This document shows, in pieces, positions 54,951 to 64,000 of a DNA stretch of 64,000 nt. Within the stretch, counting starts at the first letter, position 1. Each line of letters begins with the position of its first letter. The position numbers and the translations under genes are program-made. Origin of the DNA: Myxococcota bacterium (GTDB lineage Bacteria > Myxococcota_A > UBA9160 > UBA4427); NCBI GenBank assembly GCA_965250285.1, contig OZ252299.1:3360001-3424000 (forward strand). The letters run 5' to 3'. The notes under the pieces are model-generated. The model was given only the letters and a program-made list of their open reading frames with translations, was not told where the DNA came from and made no database searches.

Positions 54951-56084
54951 CTAGGCGTCACCCGCGAGCAGGGCAGGCCGCGCCGGCGACAGCGCGGCGC
55001 GCTCGTCGGGGTCGACCGGCGCGCGCATCAAGAGCGCCGCCGCGAGTCGCCCCGCCTCAGCGCCGCAGACCATGCCGGCGCCCGCGAGCCCGGCGACCCA
55101 GTGAAGCCCGTCGACGTCGCCATCGGCACCGATCACGAATCGACCGTCGGCCGTCAGCGTGCGCAGACCGCACCAGAAGTGTCCGGCCGCCCCATGCAAG
55201 AGCTCGGGCATGAAGCGCGCGGCCTTTCGCGCGATGAGCTCGCGCACGGCGTCGTCGCGACGCAGGCCATCGGGCTCGGCGTCGGTCAGGTCACACGCGC
55301 AGAGCAGCATGCCTCCGCTTTCGGGGCGTGCATAGAAGGCGTCGTCGCCGAGCTGCCAGACAACGGGCCAGTCTGGATCGATCCCCGCCGCCGGGCGAGT
55401 CACCATCAGGTGGCGTCGGGTCGGACGGAGCCGCACCCGCGAGCCCGCGCGGGCGCCGAGTTCGGCGGCCCATCCGCCGCTCGCGATCACCACGCGCGGC
55501 GCGTCGATGCGGGCGCCGGTCTCGAGGCGCACGCCTCGGACACCACCGCGCTCGACCGCGATCTCGGCGACGGGTGCGCTCTTCACGATCTCGACGCCGC
55601 GTGCCCGGGCGCCCCGCGCGAAGCCGAGCGTCAAGGCCGCGATGTCGATCTCGCCGTCGTCCGGCAGAAACACGGCGCCGGCGCCCTGGGGCTGGATCCA
55701 TGGGTGACGTGCCGCGATGCCATCCCGATCCAACCACTCGAAGCGCAGCCCCTCGCCCACCGCCTCGGCCTGGCGCTCGAGTGCCCGCTCTTCGCCCTTG
55801 GCGGCGAGCAACAACAGGCCGCGCGGGCGCACGAGCGGCACGTCGGCAAAGTCGACCGGCGGCGCGCGCAGGAACCCGGCGCTGCGCAGCGCGATGCGGC
55901 TCGTGAGCACGTCTTCGTCGAGCGTGCGGAGGATCGCGGCGTTCAGCGCGCTCGACTCGGCCGCGAGCATCGCGTTGCGCTCGACGAGCACGACTCGACC
56001 CGCATCGCGGTGCGCCGCCAGGTGGTAGGCGGTCGCGAGGCCGGCGACGCCGCCCCCCACGATCACGATCTCGGCCGTCGACAT
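54951..56084 (-). CDS. FAD-dependent oxidoreductase, D-amino-acid oxidase / glycine oxidase family
   Basis: IVIVGGGVAGLATAYHL, WCGLRTLTADGRFVIG, GLAGAG. Confidence 0.85.
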   Translation of the reverse strand: MSTAEIVIVGGGVAGLATAYHLAAHRDAGRVVLVERNAMLAAESSALNAAILRTLDEDVLTSRIALRSAGFLRAPPVDFADVPLVRPRGLLLLAAKGEERALERQAEAVGEGLRFEWLDRDGIAARHPWIQPQGAGAVFLPDDGEIDIAALTLGFARGARARGVEIVKSAPVAEIAVERGGVRGVRLETGARIDAPRVVIASGGWAAELGARAGSRVRLRPTRRHLMVTRPAAGIDPDWPVVWQLGDDAFYARPESGGMLLCACDLTDAEPDGLRRDDAVRELIARKAARFMPELLHGAAGHFWCGLRTLTADGRFVIGADGDVDGLHWVAGLAGAGMVCGAEAGRLAAALLMRAPVDPDERAALSPARPALLAGDA

Positions 56085-56173
56085 AGAGCGAGGGTACCAG
56101 AGCGCCCGCCGACCTGAAGTCGGAGCCCCGCGCGAGCGGCGCTCGGGCCGGCGCGCGCACGGGGCGCGGGGCC

Positions 56174-56212
56174 CAAAACAGACGGGGCGCATCCCGGTGA
56201 GGATGCGCCCCG
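56174..56212 (-). terminator. Terminator-like hairpin after mreB
   Basis: CGGGGCGCATCC-6 nt-GGATGCGCCCCG, followed on the minus strand by TCTGTTTT. Confidence 0.65.
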
Positions 56213-56238
56213 CGCGTCACTTCGAGTCGTTCGGGGTC

Positions 56239-57276
56239 TCAGCCGAGCGCCACCTCGCGCAGCAGCGAGATGTTGTCGAGGGCCTTGCCCGCGCCGTGCA
56301 CGACGGCCGTGTACGGATCTTCGCTGCGCAGGATCGGCAGCTTGGTCTCCTGGCGCAGCACCTGGTCGAGATCCTGCAGCAGGGATCCACCGCCCACGAG
56401 CATGATGCCGCGGTCGACGATGTCGGCGGCCAGCTCGGGCGGCGTCTTCTCGAGGGTGAGGTGCACGGTCTCGACGATCGCGTGGATCGGCTCGACGAGC
56501 GCCTCGCGAATCTCTTCACTGGTCGTCACGACGACCTTCGGGATGCCCGCGACGAGGTCACGGCCCTTGATCTCCATGGTCGACTGCTTCGTGTCGGGCG
56601 AAGCGGTGCCGATCGTCATCTTGACGCTCTCGGCGGTGCGCTCACCGATCAGCATGTTGTACTTGCGCTTCACGTAGTTGATGATCGCCTCGTCCATCTT
56701 GTCGCCGCCGATGCGAATCGATCGGCTGGTGACGATGCCCGAGAGCGAGATCACGGCGACGTCGGTGGTGCCGCCGCCGATGTCGACGACCATGTTGCCG
56801 GTCGCGGCCGTGACGTCGAGGCCCGCACCGATGGCCGCGGCCATGGGCTCCTCGATCAGGAACACCTCGCGTGCACCCGCCGACAGCGCCGACTCGCGAA
56901 CGGCGCGCTTTTCGACGCTGGTGATGCACGGGGGCACGCACACGACGATGCGCGGGCGCGCGAGCGTCCGACGGTTGTGTGCGCGGTGGATGAAGTAGCG
57001 GAGCATCGCCTCGGTGATCTCGAAGTCGGCGATGACGCCGTCCTTGATCGGGCGGATCGCATTGATCGAGCCCGGCGTGCGCCCGAGCATCTCCTTGGCC
57101 GCATGACCGACGGCGAGCACGCGCTGACCGCGTCCATCGGATTTGTCGGTGACGGCGACGACCGAGGGCTCGCTGCAGACGAGGCCCTTGCCCCGGCTGT
57201 AGACGAGGGTGTTCGCCGTCCCCAGATCGATGGCGAGATCGTGCGAGAACCATCCTGCGATGGAGTCGAGCAGCAT
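56239..57276 (-). CDS. mreB: Rod shape-determining actin homolog MreB
   Basis: True start MLLDSIAGWFSHDLAIDLGTANT; EPSVVA, RPIKDGVIADF, EEPMAAAIGAG, VDIGGGTT, GGGSLL. Confidence 0.96.
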   Translation of the reverse strand: MLLDSIAGWFSHDLAIDLGTANTLVYSRGKGLVCSEPSVVAVTDKSDGRGQRVLAVGHAAKEMLGRTPGSINAIRPIKDGVIADFEITEAMLRYFIHRAHNRRTLARPRIVVCVPPCITSVEKRAVRESALSAGAREVFLIEEPMAAAIGAGLDVTAATGNMVVDIGGGTTDVAVISLSGIVTSRSIRIGGDKMDEAIINYVKRKYNMLIGERTAESVKMTIGTASPDTKQSTMEIKGRDLVAGIPKVVVTTSEEIREALVEPIHAIVETVHLTLEKTPPELAADIVDRGIMLVGGGSLLQDLDQVLRQETKLPILRSEDPYTAVVHGAGKALDNISLLREVALG

Positions 57277-57571
57277 CGGCGTGTCCTTCCAGGCAGTCGG
57301 ATCGCTCGGGGGGGCGTCGAGACCTGAAGGACTGATCGGCAACAGCGCGCAGCAGTTGAGGCAAAACTGCGGCGCTGCAGTTGAAACGGACGGGCCGGGT
57401 GATCCGGGACACGCAGTGGGCGGCTCGTGCGCGCGAACGCGCGCATGCGGGGCATTCACCCCCCCAACCGCGACACGATCGGGCAGCGTTTCGCCACTCG
57501 GCTTCAGATGGATCGCCGTGCGCCCTGCGAACCGGGCCGCACGCCCTGAGGTCGCCCGGAGGCTCAGTGCC

Positions 57572-58222
57572 TCAGAAGTCGACGACCCTCGGCTCGGTCG
57601 CTTCGGCCTCGGGCTCGGCCGCGGCGGGCGCCTCGGAGGCGCCGCCGTCCCGTACCTGGGATTCGAGACCGCCGGCCGCGGCCGCCGGCGAGCCCGGCTC
57701 GGCGTGGGCGAGATCGCTGACCGCCTGGGCACGGCTCGCGAGATCGTCGACCGCGCTGCGCACGGTCGCGAGATGGGTGCGGTGCGCGTCGAGCTCGGCG
57801 CCGACGGCCGCGAGCTCGGCTTCGAGCGACTCGATCTGCGCGGTGAGCTGATCGGCCCGCTGCCCCTGCCACAGCGCGAAGACGACGGTGATCGCCAGTG
57901 CGATGCCGAGCAGCAGCGGCAATCGGCTGCGCCGCGGCGGTGCTTCGGTGGGCGCCGGGGCCGGGTTCGGCGGCGGCGTCGAGGCGGAGGGCGCGGGCTT
58001 GGGCGTGGGCGCGGGCGTGGGCGTGGGCGTGGGAGAAGGCGAAGGCGCGGACGCCGACGAAGCGCCGGGCTCAGGGGACGGCGCCGCCTTGGGCGCCGGC
58101 TCGCTCTTCGGCGCGGCAGCGGCGGCGCCGGGGGCCTGGGTGCCCTCGGCGTCGCCGTCGACCACCTTCAGGTCGGGCTTCGCCTCGGGCTGGAGATCAG
58201 TGGAGTCGTTCGATGCGGACAC
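57572..58222 (-). CDS. Pro/Ala-rich single-pass membrane protein with coiled coil
   Basis: GGAGG RBS; PSPSPTPTPTPAP region, RRSR + TM (LPLLLGIALAITVVFALW), heptad segment. Confidence 0.65.
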   Translation of the reverse strand: MSASNDSTDLQPEAKPDLKVVDGDAEGTQAPGAAAAAPKSEPAPKAAPSPEPGASSASAPSPSPTPTPTPAPTPKPAPSASTPPPNPAPAPTEAPPRRSRLPLLLGIALAITVVFALWQGQRADQLTAQIESLEAELAAVGAELDAHRTHLATVRSAVDDLASRAQAVSDLAHAEPGSPAAAAGGLESQVRDGGASEAPAAAEPEAEATEPRVVDF

Positions 58223-58332
58223 GGCGCGGCCCTCCGGTGCGGTGACGCCGGCGGCGCGGAGCGAGTCGTTCGGACGAGTGAGCCGCTTTCGGCTCGGTCT
58301 GGCTGGGCTTGCGCTCGAGGGGCCGGCTCGGA

Positions 58333-59739
58333 TCAGCTCTGGATGACCAGCTTCGAGAGGCTCGTCTTGCGCAGGTTGGTCTTCTGAATCGTCCGCACGA
58401 GCTCCGCCACCTTCTCGGTGTCGGTCTCGAAGGGATTGTTGCAGATCACGCGGACGTTCAACAGGTTGCCGAGCCGGATGTTCGACCAGTCGAGGTCGTA
58501 CTGGATCGAGTTCTCGCGGGCCAGCTTGATGAACTCGCCCCGCATCCGGGCGCGCGTGTCGGGCGGCGGCTCGCTCTTCGCGGCATCGACCTCTTCATCG
58601 CTGAAGACGCGCTCGACCGCGCCCCGCCGCTCGAGCAGGTAGTAGAGGCTGCGGTCGCGCTGGATGTCGTGGTACTGCAGGTCGAGCATGAAGACCTTCG
58701 GATCGCTCCACGACGCGCCATGGCGATCGACGTAGCTCTCGATCAGCTTGCGCTTGATCACCCAGTCGACGTGCCGGTCGAGCTTGTTCGGATCGTCGTC
58801 GAGGCAATCGAGCACGTACTGCCACATGCCAACGGCCTGCTTGTGCTCGTCGTCGACCGGATACTGCTCGATGTACTTCTGCGCCATCTCGCAGTACTCG
58901 CGCTGGATCTCGATCGGGCTGTACTCGCGCCCGTTGTCGAGTCGCAGCTTGCGCTTGCAGGTGACGTCGTAGGTGATGTCCTTGATGGCCTTCACGGGGT
59001 TGCGCAGCGTGAAGTCCTTGTTGATGTAGTTGTCCTCGATCATCTGGAGGACGACCGAGCAGGCACCCACCTTCACGAAGTTGGTGTACTCGCTCATGTT
59101 CGAGTCGCCGACGATCACGTGTAGGCGTCGATACTTCTCGCGGTCGGCGTGGGGCTCGTCGCGGGTGTTGATGATCGAGCGATCGTTGGTCGTGGTGCCC
59201 GAGATCTTCTGATAGATGTGCTGGGCACGCTGGCTGACGCAGTAGTGCACGCCGTCCTGGGTCTGGAAGACCTTGCCCGCGCCCGTGTAGATCTGGCGCG
59301 TCACGAGGAACGGGATCAGCTGCTCGGCCAGGTAGTAGAAGTCGACGTCTCGGTCGACGAGATAGTTCTCGTGACAGCCGTAGCTGTTGCCCACGAAGTC
59401 GGTGTTGTTCTTGAAGATCGAGAGCTTCCCGGGGATGCGCTCCTCGGCGATCTTCTCTTCGGCGTAGTTCTGCAGATCCTCGAGGATCCGCTCACCCGCC
59501 TTGTCGTAGATGATGAGCTGCTTCGGCGAGATGCACTCGGGCGTCGCGTACTCGGGGTGGCACCCGGTGTCCTGGTAGAAGCGCGCGCCGTTCTCGAGGA
59601 AGACGTTGAGAAAGTGCTCGGTGGTGATCAGCTTCTCGAAGAGAAAGCGGATGGCCTTCTCGACCGGCAGGGTCTTCCGCCCTTCGGGCGTGAAGATGAT
59701 CCCGTACTCGGTCTCGATTCCGTAGATCCGCTTCTGCAT
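58333..59739 (-). CDS. pafA: Pup--protein ligase
   Basis: True start MQKRIYGIETEYG; FLENGARFYQDTGCHPEYATPEC, KNNTD..GNSYGCHENY, IINTRDEPHAD.EKYRRLHVIVGDSNM, DLQYHDI, PPDTRA. Confidence 0.93.
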   Translation of the reverse strand: MQKRIYGIETEYGIIFTPEGRKTLPVEKAIRFLFEKLITTEHFLNVFLENGARFYQDTGCHPEYATPECISPKQLIIYDKAGERILEDLQNYAEEKIAEERIPGKLSIFKNNTDFVGNSYGCHENYLVDRDVDFYYLAEQLIPFLVTRQIYTGAGKVFQTQDGVHYCVSQRAQHIYQKISGTTTNDRSIINTRDEPHADREKYRRLHVIVGDSNMSEYTNFVKVGACSVVLQMIEDNYINKDFTLRNPVKAIKDITYDVTCKRKLRLDNGREYSPIEIQREYCEMAQKYIEQYPVDDEHKQAVGMWQYVLDCLDDDPNKLDRHVDWVIKRKLIESYVDRHGASWSDPKVFMLDLQYHDIQRDRSLYYLLERRGAVERVFSDEEVDAAKSEPPPDTRARMRGEFIKLARENSIQYDLDWSNIRLGNLLNVRVICNNPFETDTEKVAELVRTIQKTNLRKTSLSKLVIQS

Positions 59740-59976
59740 CTTCCTCGACCTTCGCTCTTCTTCCTTCGCCCTTCGTCCGCGCGACCTTCCACTCACCACT
59801 CACTGGCCGACTGCGGGCCATCGTTCGACCGAGCGGCTCGGGCGCCGAGCGCCCCTCGAAACCGGTCGCGCGACCGGGTGCAGAGACCCTAGCGCTTCCG
59901 TTGCGAGGCCCGGCGCCCGTGGCGGCGGCCGCCCGGGAATCCGACGAATCTGGACGAAGCTGTCCAGGACACGCCG

Positions 59977-60675
59977 TCAGCCTCCGAGCAGACCACTGAC
60001 CTCATCGGCAGAAAGCCGTCGGAACTTGCGGCGCCCATCCTCGCGGTTGAGAACGCAAACTTCCATGTTCTCCGGAGCCAGCGGCCCGCCGCCATCCCGC
60101 CCCGCTTCGAGGGCGCGCCGCCCCAGGGTGAGCCCGGCCGCCAGATCCATCCCGGCCCGGAACTCGTCGCGGAGCACCTGCTCGACGCCATCGACGTTGC
60201 CGCCGATCACGCAGAAATCGCGGTGATCGCTGATGAAACCGTCGAAGCTGATGCGGTAGAGGGCGTTCTCCTTGTGGTCTTCGTAGCGGTCGTCCCCCAC
60301 CTCGGCCACGATGAGCTCGATCTCGAGCGGCTTCATCTGGTTGGTGAAGACTTCGCCGATCGCCTGGCTGTACGCGTTGGCGATCGCTTTGCCGCGCACG
60401 TCCTCTCGGCTGTAGGCGTAGCCCTTCGTGTCGGCGAAGCGCACGCCGAGCTTCCGCAGCTGATCGAACTCGCTGAACTTGCCGACGCCGGCGAACGCGA
60501 TGCGGTCGTAGAGCTCGCCGACCTTCTGCAGTGTCGTCGAGTTCTCGGCCATCATCAGCACGCCATCCGCACACTCGAGGACGGCGATCGACTTGCCACG
60601 CGAGATGCCCTTGCGCGCAAAGTTCGCCTTGTCCTCCATCACCTGTTCGGGTGAGACGTAGAACGGCATGCTCAT
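59977..60675 (-). CDS. prcA: 20S proteasome subunit alpha
   Basis: MSMPFYVSPEQVMEDKANFARKGISRGKS, YDRIAFAGVGKFSEF, GYAYSREDV, KPLEIELIVAEVG. Confidence 0.95.
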   Translation of the reverse strand: MSMPFYVSPEQVMEDKANFARKGISRGKSIAVLECADGVLMMAENSTTLQKVGELYDRIAFAGVGKFSEFDQLRKLGVRFADTKGYAYSREDVRGKAIANAYSQAIGEVFTNQMKPLEIELIVAEVGDDRYEDHKENALYRISFDGFISDHRDFCVIGGNVDGVEQVLRDEFRAGMDLAAGLTLGRRALEAGRDGGGPLAPENMEVCVLNREDGRRKFRRLSADEVSGLLGG

Positions 60676-60755
60676 CGGGCTGTACCTCCGCCGATGCGTC
60701 GGCGCTGCGTTTCAGATGCGGCCAGCGAGGGCCCGCAAGAGAACGGCATGCTCAT
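60672..60755 (-). CDS. Putative 27-aa coupling mini-ORF MSMPFSCGPSLAASETQRRRIGGGTAR
   Basis: Its ATG overlaps the prcB TGA and its TGA overlaps the prcA ATG; GGAGG 9 nt upstream. It results from a 34-bp duplication. Confidence 0.4.
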   Translation of the reverse strand: MSMPFSCGPSLAASETQRRRIGGGTAR

Positions 60756-61570
60756 CGGGCTGTCCCTCCGCCGGCGCGGCGCTCCATCAGCGCGCGATAC
60801 AGAGACTCGATCTCTGCTTCTTCGACATCGGTGAGGCCCGAGTCGTCGCAGGTCTTGATCACGGGGAAGATGCGGCGCTCGAGATCGACGCCGCCGGTGG
60901 CCCGATCTTCGTCGGCCGCCGCCGTCAGCGCGGCCACGCCGGCAGCGACGGCGTCTTCACGCGACATGTCGGTGCCCCAGTCGTGCTTGATCGACTCGCG
61001 GGCGTACAGACCACCCGAACCGGTTGCATCGAACTCGGCCTCTTCGTATCGGCCACCGGTGATGTCGAACTTCCAGAGACGACCGTGCTTGCGACGCTGA
61101 TCGAAGCCCGCGAACAGCGGCACCACCGCCAGGCCCTGCATTGCGGCCGGCAGGTTCTGGCGGATCATCTGGCTCAGCTTGTTGGCCTTGCCCTCGAGCT
61201 CGAGGGCCTCGCCCTCGATCTTCTCGTAGTGCTCGAGCTCGACCGAGAGGATGCGCGCCATCTCGATCGAAGGCCCCGCCGCACCCGAGATCGCCATGAG
61301 CGAGTGAGAGTCGGTGGCAAAGACCTTGACCACGTCACGCGAGGCCACGCTGTGACCGGCCGTGGCGAGTCGGTCGCCGCCCACGAGGACGCCGCCGGCG
61401 TAGCGCATGGCAATCACGGTGGTGCCATGCGGCACCTGAATCGCAGCACTCGCCTGCCAGGCAGACAGGTCGGGCAGCAGCTGCGGATGTTCGTGCTGGA
61501 GCAACTCGAAGAAGCTCGAGCCCTGATACGTGCCTGTCGCCGTGCTGAGTGACGTGGCTTTCGGAAGCAC
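60752..61570 (-). CDS. prcB: 20S proteasome subunit beta (propeptide + catalytic Thr1)
   Basis: SSFFELL propeptide, PHG|TTVIA processing site, GDRLAT.G, ELEHYEKIEG..L.LEGKANKL, GSGG, AADED.ATGG. Start taken as GTG 61570. Confidence 0.95.
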   Translation of the reverse strand: MLPKATSLSTATGTYQGSSFFELLQHEHPQLLPDLSAWQASAAIQVPHGTTVIAMRYAGGVLVGGDRLATAGHSVASRDVVKVFATDSHSLMAISGAAGPSIEMARILSVELEHYEKIEGEALELEGKANKLSQMIRQNLPAAMQGLAVVPLFAGFDQRRKHGRLWKFDITGGRYEEAEFDATGSGGLYARESIKHDWGTDMSREDAVAAGVAALTAAADEDRATGGVDLERRIFPVIKTCDDSGLTDVEEAEIESLYRALMERRAGGGTAR

Positions 61571-61681
61571 CGATCCCCCCAATCGATGACGCCGCCTCGC
61601 TTGTCTGTGGAGCCTCCCGCAGACCTCGCGGACGCGCCGATGTCTCGAACCAGATGGAGCCAAGGACTCGCCCGTGTCGGC

Positions 61682-61963
61682 CTACTCGCCGCCGCGCTGG
61701 ACGTAGTTCTTGACGAACTCCTCTGCGTTCTCTTCGAGCACGTTGTCGATCTCATCCAGGAGATCGTCCATCTCGCCCTTCAGCTCGTCGCCCTTCTTGG
61801 CGAGCTTCTGGCCGCCGTCGCCCTTCTCACCCGACTCTTCGTCGCTGCCGCCACCCTTGCTCTTCTGCTTCTGGCCGCCTTCATCGGCCGCCATGAAGAT
61901 GGTGGCGTCGCTCCGGGCCTCTCGGCGGGCGAGCTCATTCGCGTTTCTCACGATTCTTGCCAT
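61682..61963 (-). CDS. pup: Prokaryotic ubiquitin-like protein Pup
   Basis: C-terminal DDLLDEIDNVLEENAEEFVKNYVQRGGE; disordered acidic/Gly region; GGAGGTG RBS; sits between dop and prcB. Confidence 0.95.
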   Translation of the reverse strand: MARIVRNANELARREARSDATIFMAADEGGQKQKSKGGGSDEESGEKGDGGQKLAKKGDELKGEMDDLLDEIDNVLEENAEEFVKNYVQRGGE

Positions 61964-62008
61964 GGTGTCACCTCCGGGGTTCCCAGTGCCGCCGAAGCAG
62001 CCGCCGAG

Positions 62009-63493
62009 TCACCCGTTCATGTTCGCCAGCAGATCTGATGCACTGGCGGAACGATCGAGAAGGTCTTCGACCATCGCGCGCGTGCCCTTCAACGGCTCGG
62101 ACATCATCACGCGCTTGATCGGCTCATCTTCGAACCCGAACGAGATCGAGTCCCAGTTGACGCCGAAGACTTCACCCGTGTAGCGGCGCAGACACTCGCC
62201 ACGGAAGTACGCGCGCGTGTCGTCGGGCGGGGTAAAGACGGCGGCATTGATTTCTTCGTCGCTCACGATGCGCTCGACCTTGCCCTGGCGCTCGAGCATG
62301 TAGTAGAGGCCCTTGTCGGGTCGCGTGTCGTGGTACTGCAGGTCGAGCATCTGCACCTGCGGTGACTGCCAGTCGAGCTCCTTGCGCTGCATGAAGCTCT
62401 CGATCAGGTTGCGCTTCGCGATCCAGTCGATCTGCTCCACCAGCTCGTTCGGATCGCGCTGCAGGCACGTCATGACGTGCTCCCACTTCTCGACGACGTC
62501 ACGCGTGACGGCATCGACGCCCGTCTTCGCGACGTAGCGCTGCGCCATCTCGAGGTACTCGCATTGCATCTCCACGGCGGTCATGTACTTGCCGTTGTCG
62601 AGGTGCAGCTGGTGCTTGAGCGACGGATCGTGCGAGACCTCCTTGATGCCGCGCACCGGGTCTCGAAGGGCGAGGTCGCGGTCGATCGCGCCGTCTTCGA
62701 TCATCTGCAGAATCAGCGCCGTGACGCCGTTTCGCAGGTAGATCGTGTATTCGCTCATGTTCGAGTCGCCGACGATGACGTGCAGGCGTCGGTACTTGTC
62801 GCGGTCGGCGTGAGGCTCGTCGCGGGTGTTCACGATCGGCCGTTTCACCATCGTGTCCAGTGCGACCTCGGTCTCGAAAAAGTCGGCTCGCTGCGAGATC
62901 TGATAGTCGCAGGGCTGGACACGATTCTCGCTGCCGACCTTGCCCGCGCCACAGTAGACCTGGCGCGTGGTGAAGAACGGCAGCAGGTGCTCGACGATGC
63001 GCTTGAACGACGTGCGGCGATCCATGAGATAGTTCTCATGGCTGCCATAGCTGTTGCCCTTGCGATCGCTGTTGTTCTTGTGGAGAAGCATCTGCGCGCC
63101 ATCGGGCAGCAAGCCATTCGCTTCGCGCCGACTGATCTCGACCACGCGCTCGCCGGCCTTCTCGTGAATCACGAGGTCTCGCGCATTCGTGACCTCGGGA
63201 CACGAGTACTCGGGATGCGCGTGATCGACGTAGTACCGCGCGCCGTTCACCAGCGTCTTGTTGCGTGCGATGTTCTCTTGCTGATTGGGCGTGTACTTCT
63301 CGCCGTCGACCTGGAAGCCACGCGCATCGGCGAGCGGATTCTCCTGCTCGTAGTCCCAGAGAATCGTCCCATCCGGGTCTTCGCGATACGCGTTGACGAG
63401 GAGGACGCAGCTCGAGATCGGGTCGAAGTCGGGATCGTTCTTGACGATGATCCCGTACTCGATCTCTGTGCCCATGACGGTCGGAATGGCCAT
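62009..63493 (-). CDS. dop: Pup deamidase/depupylase Dop
   Basis: True start MAIPTVMGTEIEYG; NGARYYVDHAHPEYS, KNNSD.KG.SYGSHENY, SQRADFFE.EV.L.T..RPIVNTRDEPH, TRAYFRG.CL. Confidence 0.93.
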   Translation of the reverse strand: MAIPTVMGTEIEYGIIVKNDPDFDPISSCVLLVNAYREDPDGTILWDYEQENPLADARGFQVDGEKYTPNQQENIARNKTLVNGARYYVDHAHPEYSCPEVTNARDLVIHEKAGERVVEISRREANGLLPDGAQMLLHKNNSDRKGNSYGSHENYLMDRRTSFKRIVEHLLPFFTTRQVYCGAGKVGSENRVQPCDYQISQRADFFETEVALDTMVKRPIVNTRDEPHADRDKYRRLHVIVGDSNMSEYTIYLRNGVTALILQMIEDGAIDRDLALRDPVRGIKEVSHDPSLKHQLHLDNGKYMTAVEMQCEYLEMAQRYVAKTGVDAVTRDVVEKWEHVMTCLQRDPNELVEQIDWIAKRNLIESFMQRKELDWQSPQVQMLDLQYHDTRPDKGLYYMLERQGKVERIVSDEEINAAVFTPPDDTRAYFRGECLRRYTGEVFGVNWDSISFGFEDEPIKRVMMSEPLKGTRAMVEDLLDRSASASDLLANMNG

Positions 63494-63588
63494 CGGCTCT
63501 CCGGTCCCCGCTTCTAGTCCGCCTGCGCTCACCGCGGCCGCGAGAGGCTAACCCACCCACCGCGCATCGGCGGGCAGGCGCCTGCGGC

Positions 63589-63619
63589 CGCCCGATGCCG
63601 GCCATGCCGGCATCGGGCG
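63589..63619. other. 13-bp perfect stem-loop between arc and dop
   Basis: CGCCCGATGCCGG-CCATG-CCGGCATCGGGCG 7 nt after the arc stop; no U-tail. Confidence 0.6.
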
Positions 63620-63626
63620 TGAGGTT

Positions 63627-64000
63627 TCAGACGTACTGGCCCTGGCCGGCGGCCACGTTCTCGACCATTTCTTCTTTGCGCTCGACGCCCGTGATGAGCG
63701 TGCGGACATTGATGATCCGCTCGCCCTTCCGGCCCGAGATGCGCGCCCAGTCGTCCGGGTTCGTGGTGTTCGGGAGATCCTCGTTCTCCTTGAACTCCTC
63801 GCGCACCGACTCGATCATGTCGACGAGCTTGATGCCTCGCTCCTCGTTCTCGATGAGCCGCTTGACCGCCTTGCGCTTCGCGCGTGCAACGATGTTCTCG
63901 ATCATCGCGCCACTGGCGAAATCCTTGAAGTAGAAGATCTCGCGCTCGCCCTTGGCGTAGGTCACCTCGAGGAACTTCATCTCGTCGCCGGTCGAGTACA
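63627..64000 (-). CDS. arc: Proteasome ATPase ARC/Mpa (C-terminal part; 5' end outside the window)
   Basis: FLEVTYAKG..E.FYFKDFASGAMIENIV.RAK, EFKENEDLPNTTNPDDWARISGRKGERI, C-terminus GQYV; frame open to the edge. Confidence 0.93.
   Translation of the reverse strand, partial: YSTGDEMKFLEVTYAKGEREIFYFKDFASGAMIENIVARAKRKAVKRLIENEERGIKLVDMIESVREEFKENEDLPNTTNPDDWARISGRKGERIINVRTLITGVERKEEMVENVAAGQGQYV

Follow-up and report, generated by a model that had tools for sequence, protein, structure and literature searches.

The window analyzed here, 64,000 nt of contig OZ252299.1 (assembly GCA_965250285.1, positions 3,360,001 to 3,424,000 of the forward strand), ends in the genes of a Pup-proteasome system. 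Its host is an uncultured diderm bacterium of Myxococcota lineage that groups with metagenome-assembled genomes (MAGs) of class UBA9160/Vahlivitia (hereafter the class, its name being taken from record labels). We hold with high confidence that this is a complete Pup-proteasome, fixed in the class, that has likely been inherited vertically, likely acts as the actinobacterial one does, likely receives a sigma-54 input and has an unfoldase, Arc, with a helix predicted to bind membranes. By every sequence test the locus is a known system, and it is a variant by its branch, its promoter and its terminal motifs.

Family membership was judged by the curated NCBIfam cut-offs (scores and cut-offs in bits), and the window was found to contain the following genes.

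58333..59739, minus strand: pafA, Pup ligase, 468 aa (TIGR03686, 555.6 bits, cut-off 551.3)
59977..60675, minus strand: prcA, 20S proteasome alpha subunit, 232 aa (TIGR03691, 285.9 bits, cut-off 139.05)
60752..61570, minus strand: prcB, 20S beta subunit, start codon predicted (TIGR03690, 285.9 bits, cut-off 191.9)
61682..61894, minus strand: pup, 70 aa, with a GGE end (TIGR03687, 62 bits, cut-off 41.45; PF05639, 70.6 bits)
62009..63493, minus strand: dop, deamidase/depupylase, 494 aa (TIGR03688, 578.5 bits, cut-off 492.3)
63627..64000, minus strand: 3' end (374 nt) of arc, proteasomal AAA+ unfoldase (TIGR03689, 737.7 bits at full length, cut-off 504.75)

All six are intact and each scores above its cut-off. 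Order, strand and families bear out what a first-pass annotation of the same DNA had proposed, six co-directional genes in the order arc-dop-pup-prcB-prcA-pafA, and the four motifs to which it had pointed (Dop YVDHAHPEYS, PafA HPEYATPEC, PrcB G|TT and Pup GGE) are all present. The full arc gene (G000:C1:3423627-3425492, 621 aa; coordinates with this prefix are those of the source genome's single contig) extends just beyond the window. An in-frame ATG at 61963 provides an alternative pup start, which would give 93 aa.

The features expected of each protein could be recognized. PafA has the GhExE motif and no Dop loop, whereas Dop carries the Dop-loop insert in the alignment, with a Trp motif present in 64 of 65 class Dops. 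The PafA model (predicted template-modelling score, pTM, 0.91) superposes on the PafA-Pup structure 4bjr with a TM score of 0.91. PrcB has a propeptide of ~49 residues followed by the mature Thr1, Asp17 and Lys33, a triad kept in 71/71 PrcB sequences having the cleavage motif, and its nearest solved relatives are the bacterial proteasome beta subunits 2h6j and 2jay. Pup, small and acidic, aligns with the solved Pup in 3m9d and 7px9, the latter being also the nearest solved relative of Arc (E 1e-193). Arc itself shows the coiled coil, the OB domains, the AAA domain and a GQYL-type C-terminal motif, here GQYV (across 66 loci, GQYL in 62 and GQYV in two); the GQYL end is called essential for gate opening (PMC8142254). 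A search for the accessory activator Bpa/PafE gave no match in this genome, and none in any control genome; at the locus there was no WYL-domain (pafBC-type) gene.

The Pup-ligase family was present in 41/41 relatives and in 148 of 151 class genomes, and PrcB in 96 of 101. Across a sample of the phylum, PrcB occurred in 55/59 class genomes versus 0/242 others, and the ligase family in 57/59 versus 7/242. Among the best 80 of 575 PafA matches, to which all 80-locus counts refer, the six genes were all in order in 66 loci, the remaining ones being mostly interrupted by contig ends; lolA stood before arc in 58 and mreB after pafA in 66, the ftsK-lolA...mreB setting being fixed. In four close relatives, all six genes gave nonsynonymous divergence (pN) of 0.05-0.24 versus synonymous divergence (pS) of 0.30-0.89. 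For 48 genomes with complete genes, 14 of 14 strongly supported MreB splits recurred in the five-protein tree with no conflicts, which fits vertical descent. These comparisons show an old, resident locus that is complete and fixed in the class as a near-universal core locus; the annotation had already suggested an old, resident system, and the class-wide spread, the fixed neighborhood and the MreB-congruent tree uphold that suggestion.

Two of the seven out-of-class ligase matches in the phylum were inspected, and each was a single ligase with a membrane insert, only 26-37% identical to this PafA, with proteasome genes absent within 6.5 kb. Single divergent Pup-ligase homologues with membrane inserts were seen in other Myxococcota (L197 on G384:C43 and L198 on G207:C55), one ligase of this type adjoining a small GGE-ending open reading frame (ORF). 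Some class genomes have additional divergent ligase genes or pairs (extra matches in G038, G087 and G045-G051).

Over 71 loci, the terminal residue of Pup was Glu in 46 and Gln in 25, and nothing else; Glu/Gln switches numbered 14 on 48 tips, versus 15.0 with shuffled labels. A Gln-ending Pup must be deamidated before ligation (PMC3511204). Such free switching, with Gln forms that need deamidation, argues for an active Dop. The intact catalytic residues and the purifying selection suggest that the pathway as a whole works. To that extent the earlier description of a working, little-studied pathway stands, although its second half has to be tempered, since Pup-proteasomes outside Actinobacteria are already in print.

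HslV is encoded in 37 of 41 class genomes, including this one. Given this coexistence, the Pup-proteasome of the class probably has a role that other proteases do not cover. The source genome holds, besides the 20S subunits, HslV and a further proteasome-family protease (G000:C1:6032358-6032873 and 2471257-2471808), thus three proteasome-family proteases per cell. The further one, which we take to be Anbu-like, adjoins amidoligase and transglutaminase-like genes.

The nearest PafAs outside the class, at 61-68% identity, are labelled Entotheonella, Nitrospinota, KSB3/Moduliflexus and Limnocylindrales, whereas actinobacterial PafAs are 48-50% identical to the class protein. Among the trees that the annotation had called for, that of PafA was built from 31 checked rows and rooted on Dop; truncated, broken and chimeric rows, the broken database row P0180 among them, were left out. 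The class grouped with Entotheonella, Nitrospinota and KSB3 in a Gram-negative clade (support 98/99), apart from the actinobacterial clade (100/100), and forcing class and Actinobacteria into one PafA clade was rejected by the approximately unbiased (AU) test (p-AU 0.0009). Each of the six proteins is nearer to sister-lineage loci than to Nonomuraea. As judged from these trees and identities, the class locus is an old, separate Gram-negative branch shared with other Gram-negative phyla, and recent transfer from the sampled Actinobacteria is excluded. The label "actinobacterial-style", which the annotation had given to the locus, fits its gene order and families and does not fit its origin.

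Some database proteins (P0091, P0094, P0097, P0099 and P0112) consist of a PafA first half and a Dop or actinobacterial PafA second half; these are probably assembly chimeras formed at a shared conserved stretch, and they distort trees. A Streptomyces plasmid (L115, NZ_CP108391.1) carries an unannotated arc fragment amid transposase genes.

The regulatory and N-terminal features of arc lie beyond the window, in the same contig.

G000:C1:3425557-3425572, minus strand: sigma-54 -24/-12 box, 80 nt before the arc ATG (box scan)
G000:C1:3426006-3426033, minus strand: sigma-70-type box TTGACA-16-TACCCT, 461 nt upstream of the sigma-54 box (box scan)
G000:C1:3425424-3425459, minus strand: basic amphipathic helix RKGFVRDVMRRI, Arc residues 12-23 (conserved motif)

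A sigma-54 box (GG-N10-GC) with at most two mismatches was found in 59/59 upstream regions (58 loci and this genome), versus 3.0 in shuffles and 0 on the reverse strand, and one with at most one mismatch in 46/59, versus 0.1 in shuffles. A stricter first pattern had matched only 11 of 58, because it insisted on T at a position where the class mostly has C. The class sigma-70 box lies 250-850 nt upstream of the sigma-54 box in 52/58 regions (shuffles 0.23). Among the sister loci with upstream DNA, the sigma-70 box was present in 11/11, 90-118 nt before arc, and the sigma-54 box was not found in any of the 11 (best match with at least four mismatches); nor was it seen before two actinobacterial arc genes. 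With sister loci having the one box and lacking the other, the class itself seems to have added the sigma-54 box. The genome encodes RpoN and ~14 strong enhancer-binding proteins, and the same scan also marks the ammonium transporter, cyanase and pilin genes. We consider it very probable that transcription of the locus starts from this class-specific, predicted sigma-54 promoter.

Other elements upstream of arc were also looked for. No other shared activator site was found before arc, and no Rfam family between lolA and arc. A LexA-like box (AAAC-N4-GTTT), which some members of the class have 39 nt ahead of the sigma-70 box, was rejected as a candidate: it has eight matches in the genome, none at recA, and one of them stands before a tRNA-like sequence. 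Phased A/T tracts with ~11-nt spacing flank the sigma-70 box on both sides (G000:C1:3425950-3426080); they are conserved in the class and may be a bending or IHF-like site. Genome-wide, there are 47 near-consensus sigma-54 boxes, and a TGC-N11-GCA-like palindrome ~115-210 nt upstream is common to genes for the ammonium transporter, cyanase, an ANTAR regulator and a circularly permuted ATP-grasp protein, which likely form an NtrC-type regulon.

Arc starts with a disordered stretch that contains the motif R[KR]GFVRDVM[RK]RI. The motif was strict in 44 of the 56 class Arcs with a readable N-terminus, the other 12 having variants; among 100 database Arcs it was strict in 82 and near in eight, and five of the ten misses begin at the motif's own Met. 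A search for its exact core found a single coding copy in each of 71 of 101 class genomes, with wobble positions free to vary and no control hits. In the sister lineage, [RKS][KT]GF[IV][KR]DTMRK[FL] was read in 11/11 loci with an intact N-terminus (of 33 metagenome loci), and the motif was missing in the Arcs of Nonomuraea and Tsukamurella. The Arc model (overall pTM 0.42) shows an isolated, low-confidence helix at residues 16-23.

The helix is short, basic, amphipathic and placed at a flexible terminus, as are membrane-targeting helices of the MinD type; the end of Escherichia coli MinD is KKGFLKRLFGG, and four loci read RRGFLRRF. A single MinD helix binds membranes weakly and two bind well (PMC8155659), so that six copies on an Arc hexamer would be expected to bind well. 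That the helix anchors the unfoldase on the cytoplasmic membrane is a serious possibility, to which we give slightly less than even weight, the alternative being a protein-binding motif.

PafA, at its other end, has a basic tail, ..LRKTSLSKLVIQS, which is nearly invariant in the class (terminal KLVIQS in 79/80 loci) and is modelled with a per-residue confidence (pLDDT) below 50. Sister PafA tails are basic and aromatic, with variable sequence (..FKYGYLL), and the named actinobacterial PafAs stop earlier.

If the known pathway is a guide, PafA would couple, at the expense of ATP, the C-terminal Glu of Pup to lysines of target proteins, and Dop would strip the tag and, in relatives encoding Gln, deamidate Pup. 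The Arc hexamer would grip Pup by the coiled coil and unfold the target, which the GQY[LV] contacts would pass into the PrcA/PrcB barrel for Thr1 to cut. Transcription would come from both the old sigma-70 promoter and the class-specific sigma-54 promoter, and six N-terminal helices would hold Arc at the inner face of the cytoplasmic membrane.

Only tentatively do we extend this into a picture of an old, separate branch, common to several uncultured Gram-negative phyla and operating at the inner membrane, in which Arc would stand on six MinD-like helices with its intake turned to the lipid, PafA would be drawn there by its basic tail, and, in this class, sigma-54 wiring would make of it a tethered, enhancer-controlled proteasome for membrane or envelope-related proteins. 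The pathway might equally be an ordinary soluble one in which the Arc helix and the PafA tail serve to dock a protein partner (an adaptor, Pup, Dop or each other) and have no bearing on membranes, an explanation whose chances we judge to fall just under one half. Both motifs are almost invariant within otherwise disordered parts, down to their Asp and Arg residues, a conservation tighter than lipid binding usually demands, and they occur together in the Gram-negative clade. On the other hand, the variant RRGFLRRF lacks the Asp-Val-Met core and comes very close to the sequence of MinD; both motifs are basic, hence poor partners for one another; and the sister PafA tails differ in sequence yet keep basic and aromatic residues.

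Transfer of the locus from Actinobacteria into the class, of the kind printed for Nitrospirae and Proteobacteria, seems improbable to us. The shared gene order and families and the fit of Pup to the actinobacterial model would agree with it, an actinobacterial origin has been argued (PMC7947786, PMC3511204), and the absence of PrcB from the other 242 phylum genomes requires some gain or many losses; yet the AU test rejects a union of class and Actinobacteria (p 0.0009), the closest PafAs belong to Entotheonella, Nitrospinota and KSB3 (61-68%, versus 48-50% for Actinobacteria), and the Arc helix and the sigma-70 box are common to the class and its sister lineage. The separate Gram-negative branch that we favor does leave room for a very ancient transfer, in which a Gram-negative ancestor acquired the locus and these phyla then passed it among themselves. 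Much less probable still is a UBact-type locus misnamed Pup, an identity that we rejected: NF033388 had no match above cut-off in the genome and none at the pup gene, and the tag scores 70.6 bits on Pup (PF05639) and aligns with solved Pup. We give practically no credence to an assembly chimera, to contaminating actinobacterial DNA or to a locus in decay, despite the dip in GC over the locus (62-65%, versus ~69-70% nearby) and a genome contamination estimate of 3.9%. The mreB-pafA region is bridged by contigs and its junctions recur in 66/80 loci, the genes are under purifying selection and their codon usage is ordinary; synteny and selection together rule this explanation out.

Several points weigh against the reading of a vertically inherited, sigma-54-driven and possibly membrane-bound system. 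The 80-locus set was chosen by best PafA match, which inflates PafA conservation; one locus, L100, is a true exception, with pafA alone and the other genes not within 6.9 kb upstream; and frame breaks occur in at least three loci (L064, L065 and L075). Because mreB sits beside the locus, the congruent trees would also be expected if the whole block had been transferred together. The trees contain no labelled Nitrospira or Leptospirillum and only three named actinobacterial PafAs, with taxa taken from source labels; with no Nitrospirota identified in the set and with long branches present, the tree speaks to recent transfer more than to the deep origin. The sole RNA run (X23) yielded short contigs of relatives only, which is no proof of expression. 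NtrC-like sites, scanned with a palindrome that we take to be the consensus and that lies before this genome's ammonium transporter gene, are not enriched before arc (1/58 versus 0.8; 12 versus 9.7), which leaves a link to nitrogen starvation unsupported. As for the helix, the actinobacterial comparison of Arc N-termini consists of two sequences only, and a basic amphipathic 12-mer occurs within the last 25 residues of 157/3838 proteins of the genome (~4%), so that helix shape alone says little. Finally, the polar residues of the helix are near-invariant, which suits a protein partner equally.

The source genome is a single 6.25 Mb contig, estimated to be 95% complete. Profile searches found the diderm markers LpxA and BamA above cut-offs on the same contig as the Pup-proteasome locus, and the window also encodes a PilT-like T2SSE ATPase, RecA, AlaS and DnaB, in agreement with the Gram-negative, Myxococcota-like host of the first-pass annotation. 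Contigs of run X1, possibly the source sample, tile 55500-64000 with zero differing letters. One of them spans mreB to pafA (56833-58504); from run X3, another contig spans the unnamed membrane-protein gene described below to pafA (57452-58473); the junctions of the region were found again in dozens of other MAGs. The codon usage of the six genes falls in the 26th-99th percentile of 2887 long ORFs and is comparable to that of mreB, alaS, dnaB and ftsK, much as the annotation had remarked of the neighboring core genes. Neither of the two outcomes that it had named as fatal to its proposal, a host within Actinobacteria or Nitrospirota and a chimeric join between mreB and pafA, was encountered.

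Most of the species genomes that supplied the best 80 PafA matches bear the titles Myxococcota, Myxococcales or Deltaproteobacteria; isolates UBA6930 and SZUA-336 also belong to this set. Some class-type loci (L026, L028, L032, L035, L048, L069, L080 and others) come from records publicly titled Spirochaetaceae, Spirochaetales, Geobacter or Gammaproteobacteria. Family UBA6930 has been assigned to class Vahlivitia, previously UBA9160, in a paper that nowhere mentions proteasomes in its main text (bioRxiv 10.64898/2026.07.10.737566).

Three further features accompany the six genes within the window.

57572..58222, minus strand: unnamed membrane protein with one transmembrane pass and a coiled coil, encoded between pafA and mreB (no family above cut-off)
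56239..57276, minus strand: mreB, the conserved downstream neighbor (TIGR00904)
60672..60755, minus strand: mini-ORF of 27 codons, from a duplicated prcB-stop/prcA-start junction (sequence; contigs of X1 and X2 span it)

The unnamed ORF is fast-evolving and is present in 45 of the 62 loci having mreB close by; the N-terminal part of its product contains a word, LKVV, that we take to be like the ClpX-binding tail of SspB. In the mini-ORF, the two copies of the junction are 80 nt apart and there is an ATGA overlap with each flanking gene, by which translational coupling of prcB and prcA could persist. The same-genus genome G001 has the same duplication, at 80 nt; of the 80 named loci just one, L026, shows a similar duplication, at 62 nt.

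Published accounts assign bacterial proteasomes to Actinobacteria and Nitrospirae and regard copies in other groups as sporadic gains by transfer (PMC7947786, PMC3511204, PMC8142254); sporadic Pup-proteasome genes outside Actinobacteria, Proteobacteria draft genomes included, have been reported before (PMC7947786, PMC2588565). The proteins of this locus have been named automatically in public records; with such precedents, the surprise is smaller than first scored. A literature search, with subscription journals largely outside its scope, returned no account of the locus of this class, its promoter or its Arc helix. The locus matters because nearly every genome of a widespread Gram-negative class has it as part of its core, and the shared Gram-negative branch bears on the origin of bacterial proteasomes. 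The Arc helix adds the new idea of a membrane-tethered bacterial proteasome, which, if the membrane reading were true, would also be enhancer-controlled; should the helix prove to be a docking motif and nothing more, what remains is a wider known range for a pathway already studied in depth.

UBact loci (those of Lehmann et al. 2017) reportedly have Gram-negative hosts and the same six-gene architecture; unlike theirs, the tag here is Pup, and NF033388 does not recognize it. The known deltaproteobacterial Pup loci, of the Plesiocystis/Rhodopirellula type, likewise hint at tagging at the membrane, but comprise one membrane-anchored ligase with a transmembrane insert and no proteasome (PMC2588565); the two out-of-class matches that we opened resemble this type. 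Compared with the membrane-targeting sequence of E. coli MinD (PMC8155659), the Arc helix has the same basic-basic-Gly-Phe start, amphipathic character and charge of +4, with a hydrophobic moment of 0.40-0.51 versus 0.41 for MinD. The MinD helix is C-terminal and has been shown to bind membranes, whereas the Arc helix is N-terminal and its binding is predicted; no homology is implied.

The Pup-proteasome of Leptospirillum and other Nitrospirae is complete, resides in a Gram-negative host and has the gene order seen here (PMC3511204, PMC7947786); in the same papers it is described as derived from Acidimicrobiales. With the actinobacterial system (Mpa/ARC 7px9, Dop 4b0r, PafA 4b0t and 4bjr, Pup 3m9d, PrcA/PrcB 2h6j and 2jay) the class locus has in common the six families and the gene order, as well as the catalytic residues, the GQY[LV] docking end, the GG[EQ] tag and the PafA fold. 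Unlike it, the class locus forms a separate tree branch, keeps its six genes contiguous, has the sigma-54 box, the Arc N-terminal helix and the basic PafA tail, and includes no WYL-domain gene. Actinobacteria are also said to lack HslV (PMC3511204), which the class keeps (37/41). The closest relatives are loci bearing the source labels Entotheonella/Tectomicrobia, Nitrospinota and KSB3 (Moduliflexus). In the Entotheonella-type loci that we read, the six-gene order, the Pup end, the Arc helix and the sigma-70 box are as in the class; the sister loci differ from it in having neither the sigma-54 box nor the ftsK-lolA and mreB neighbors, and in a PafA tail that reads ..FKYGYLL.

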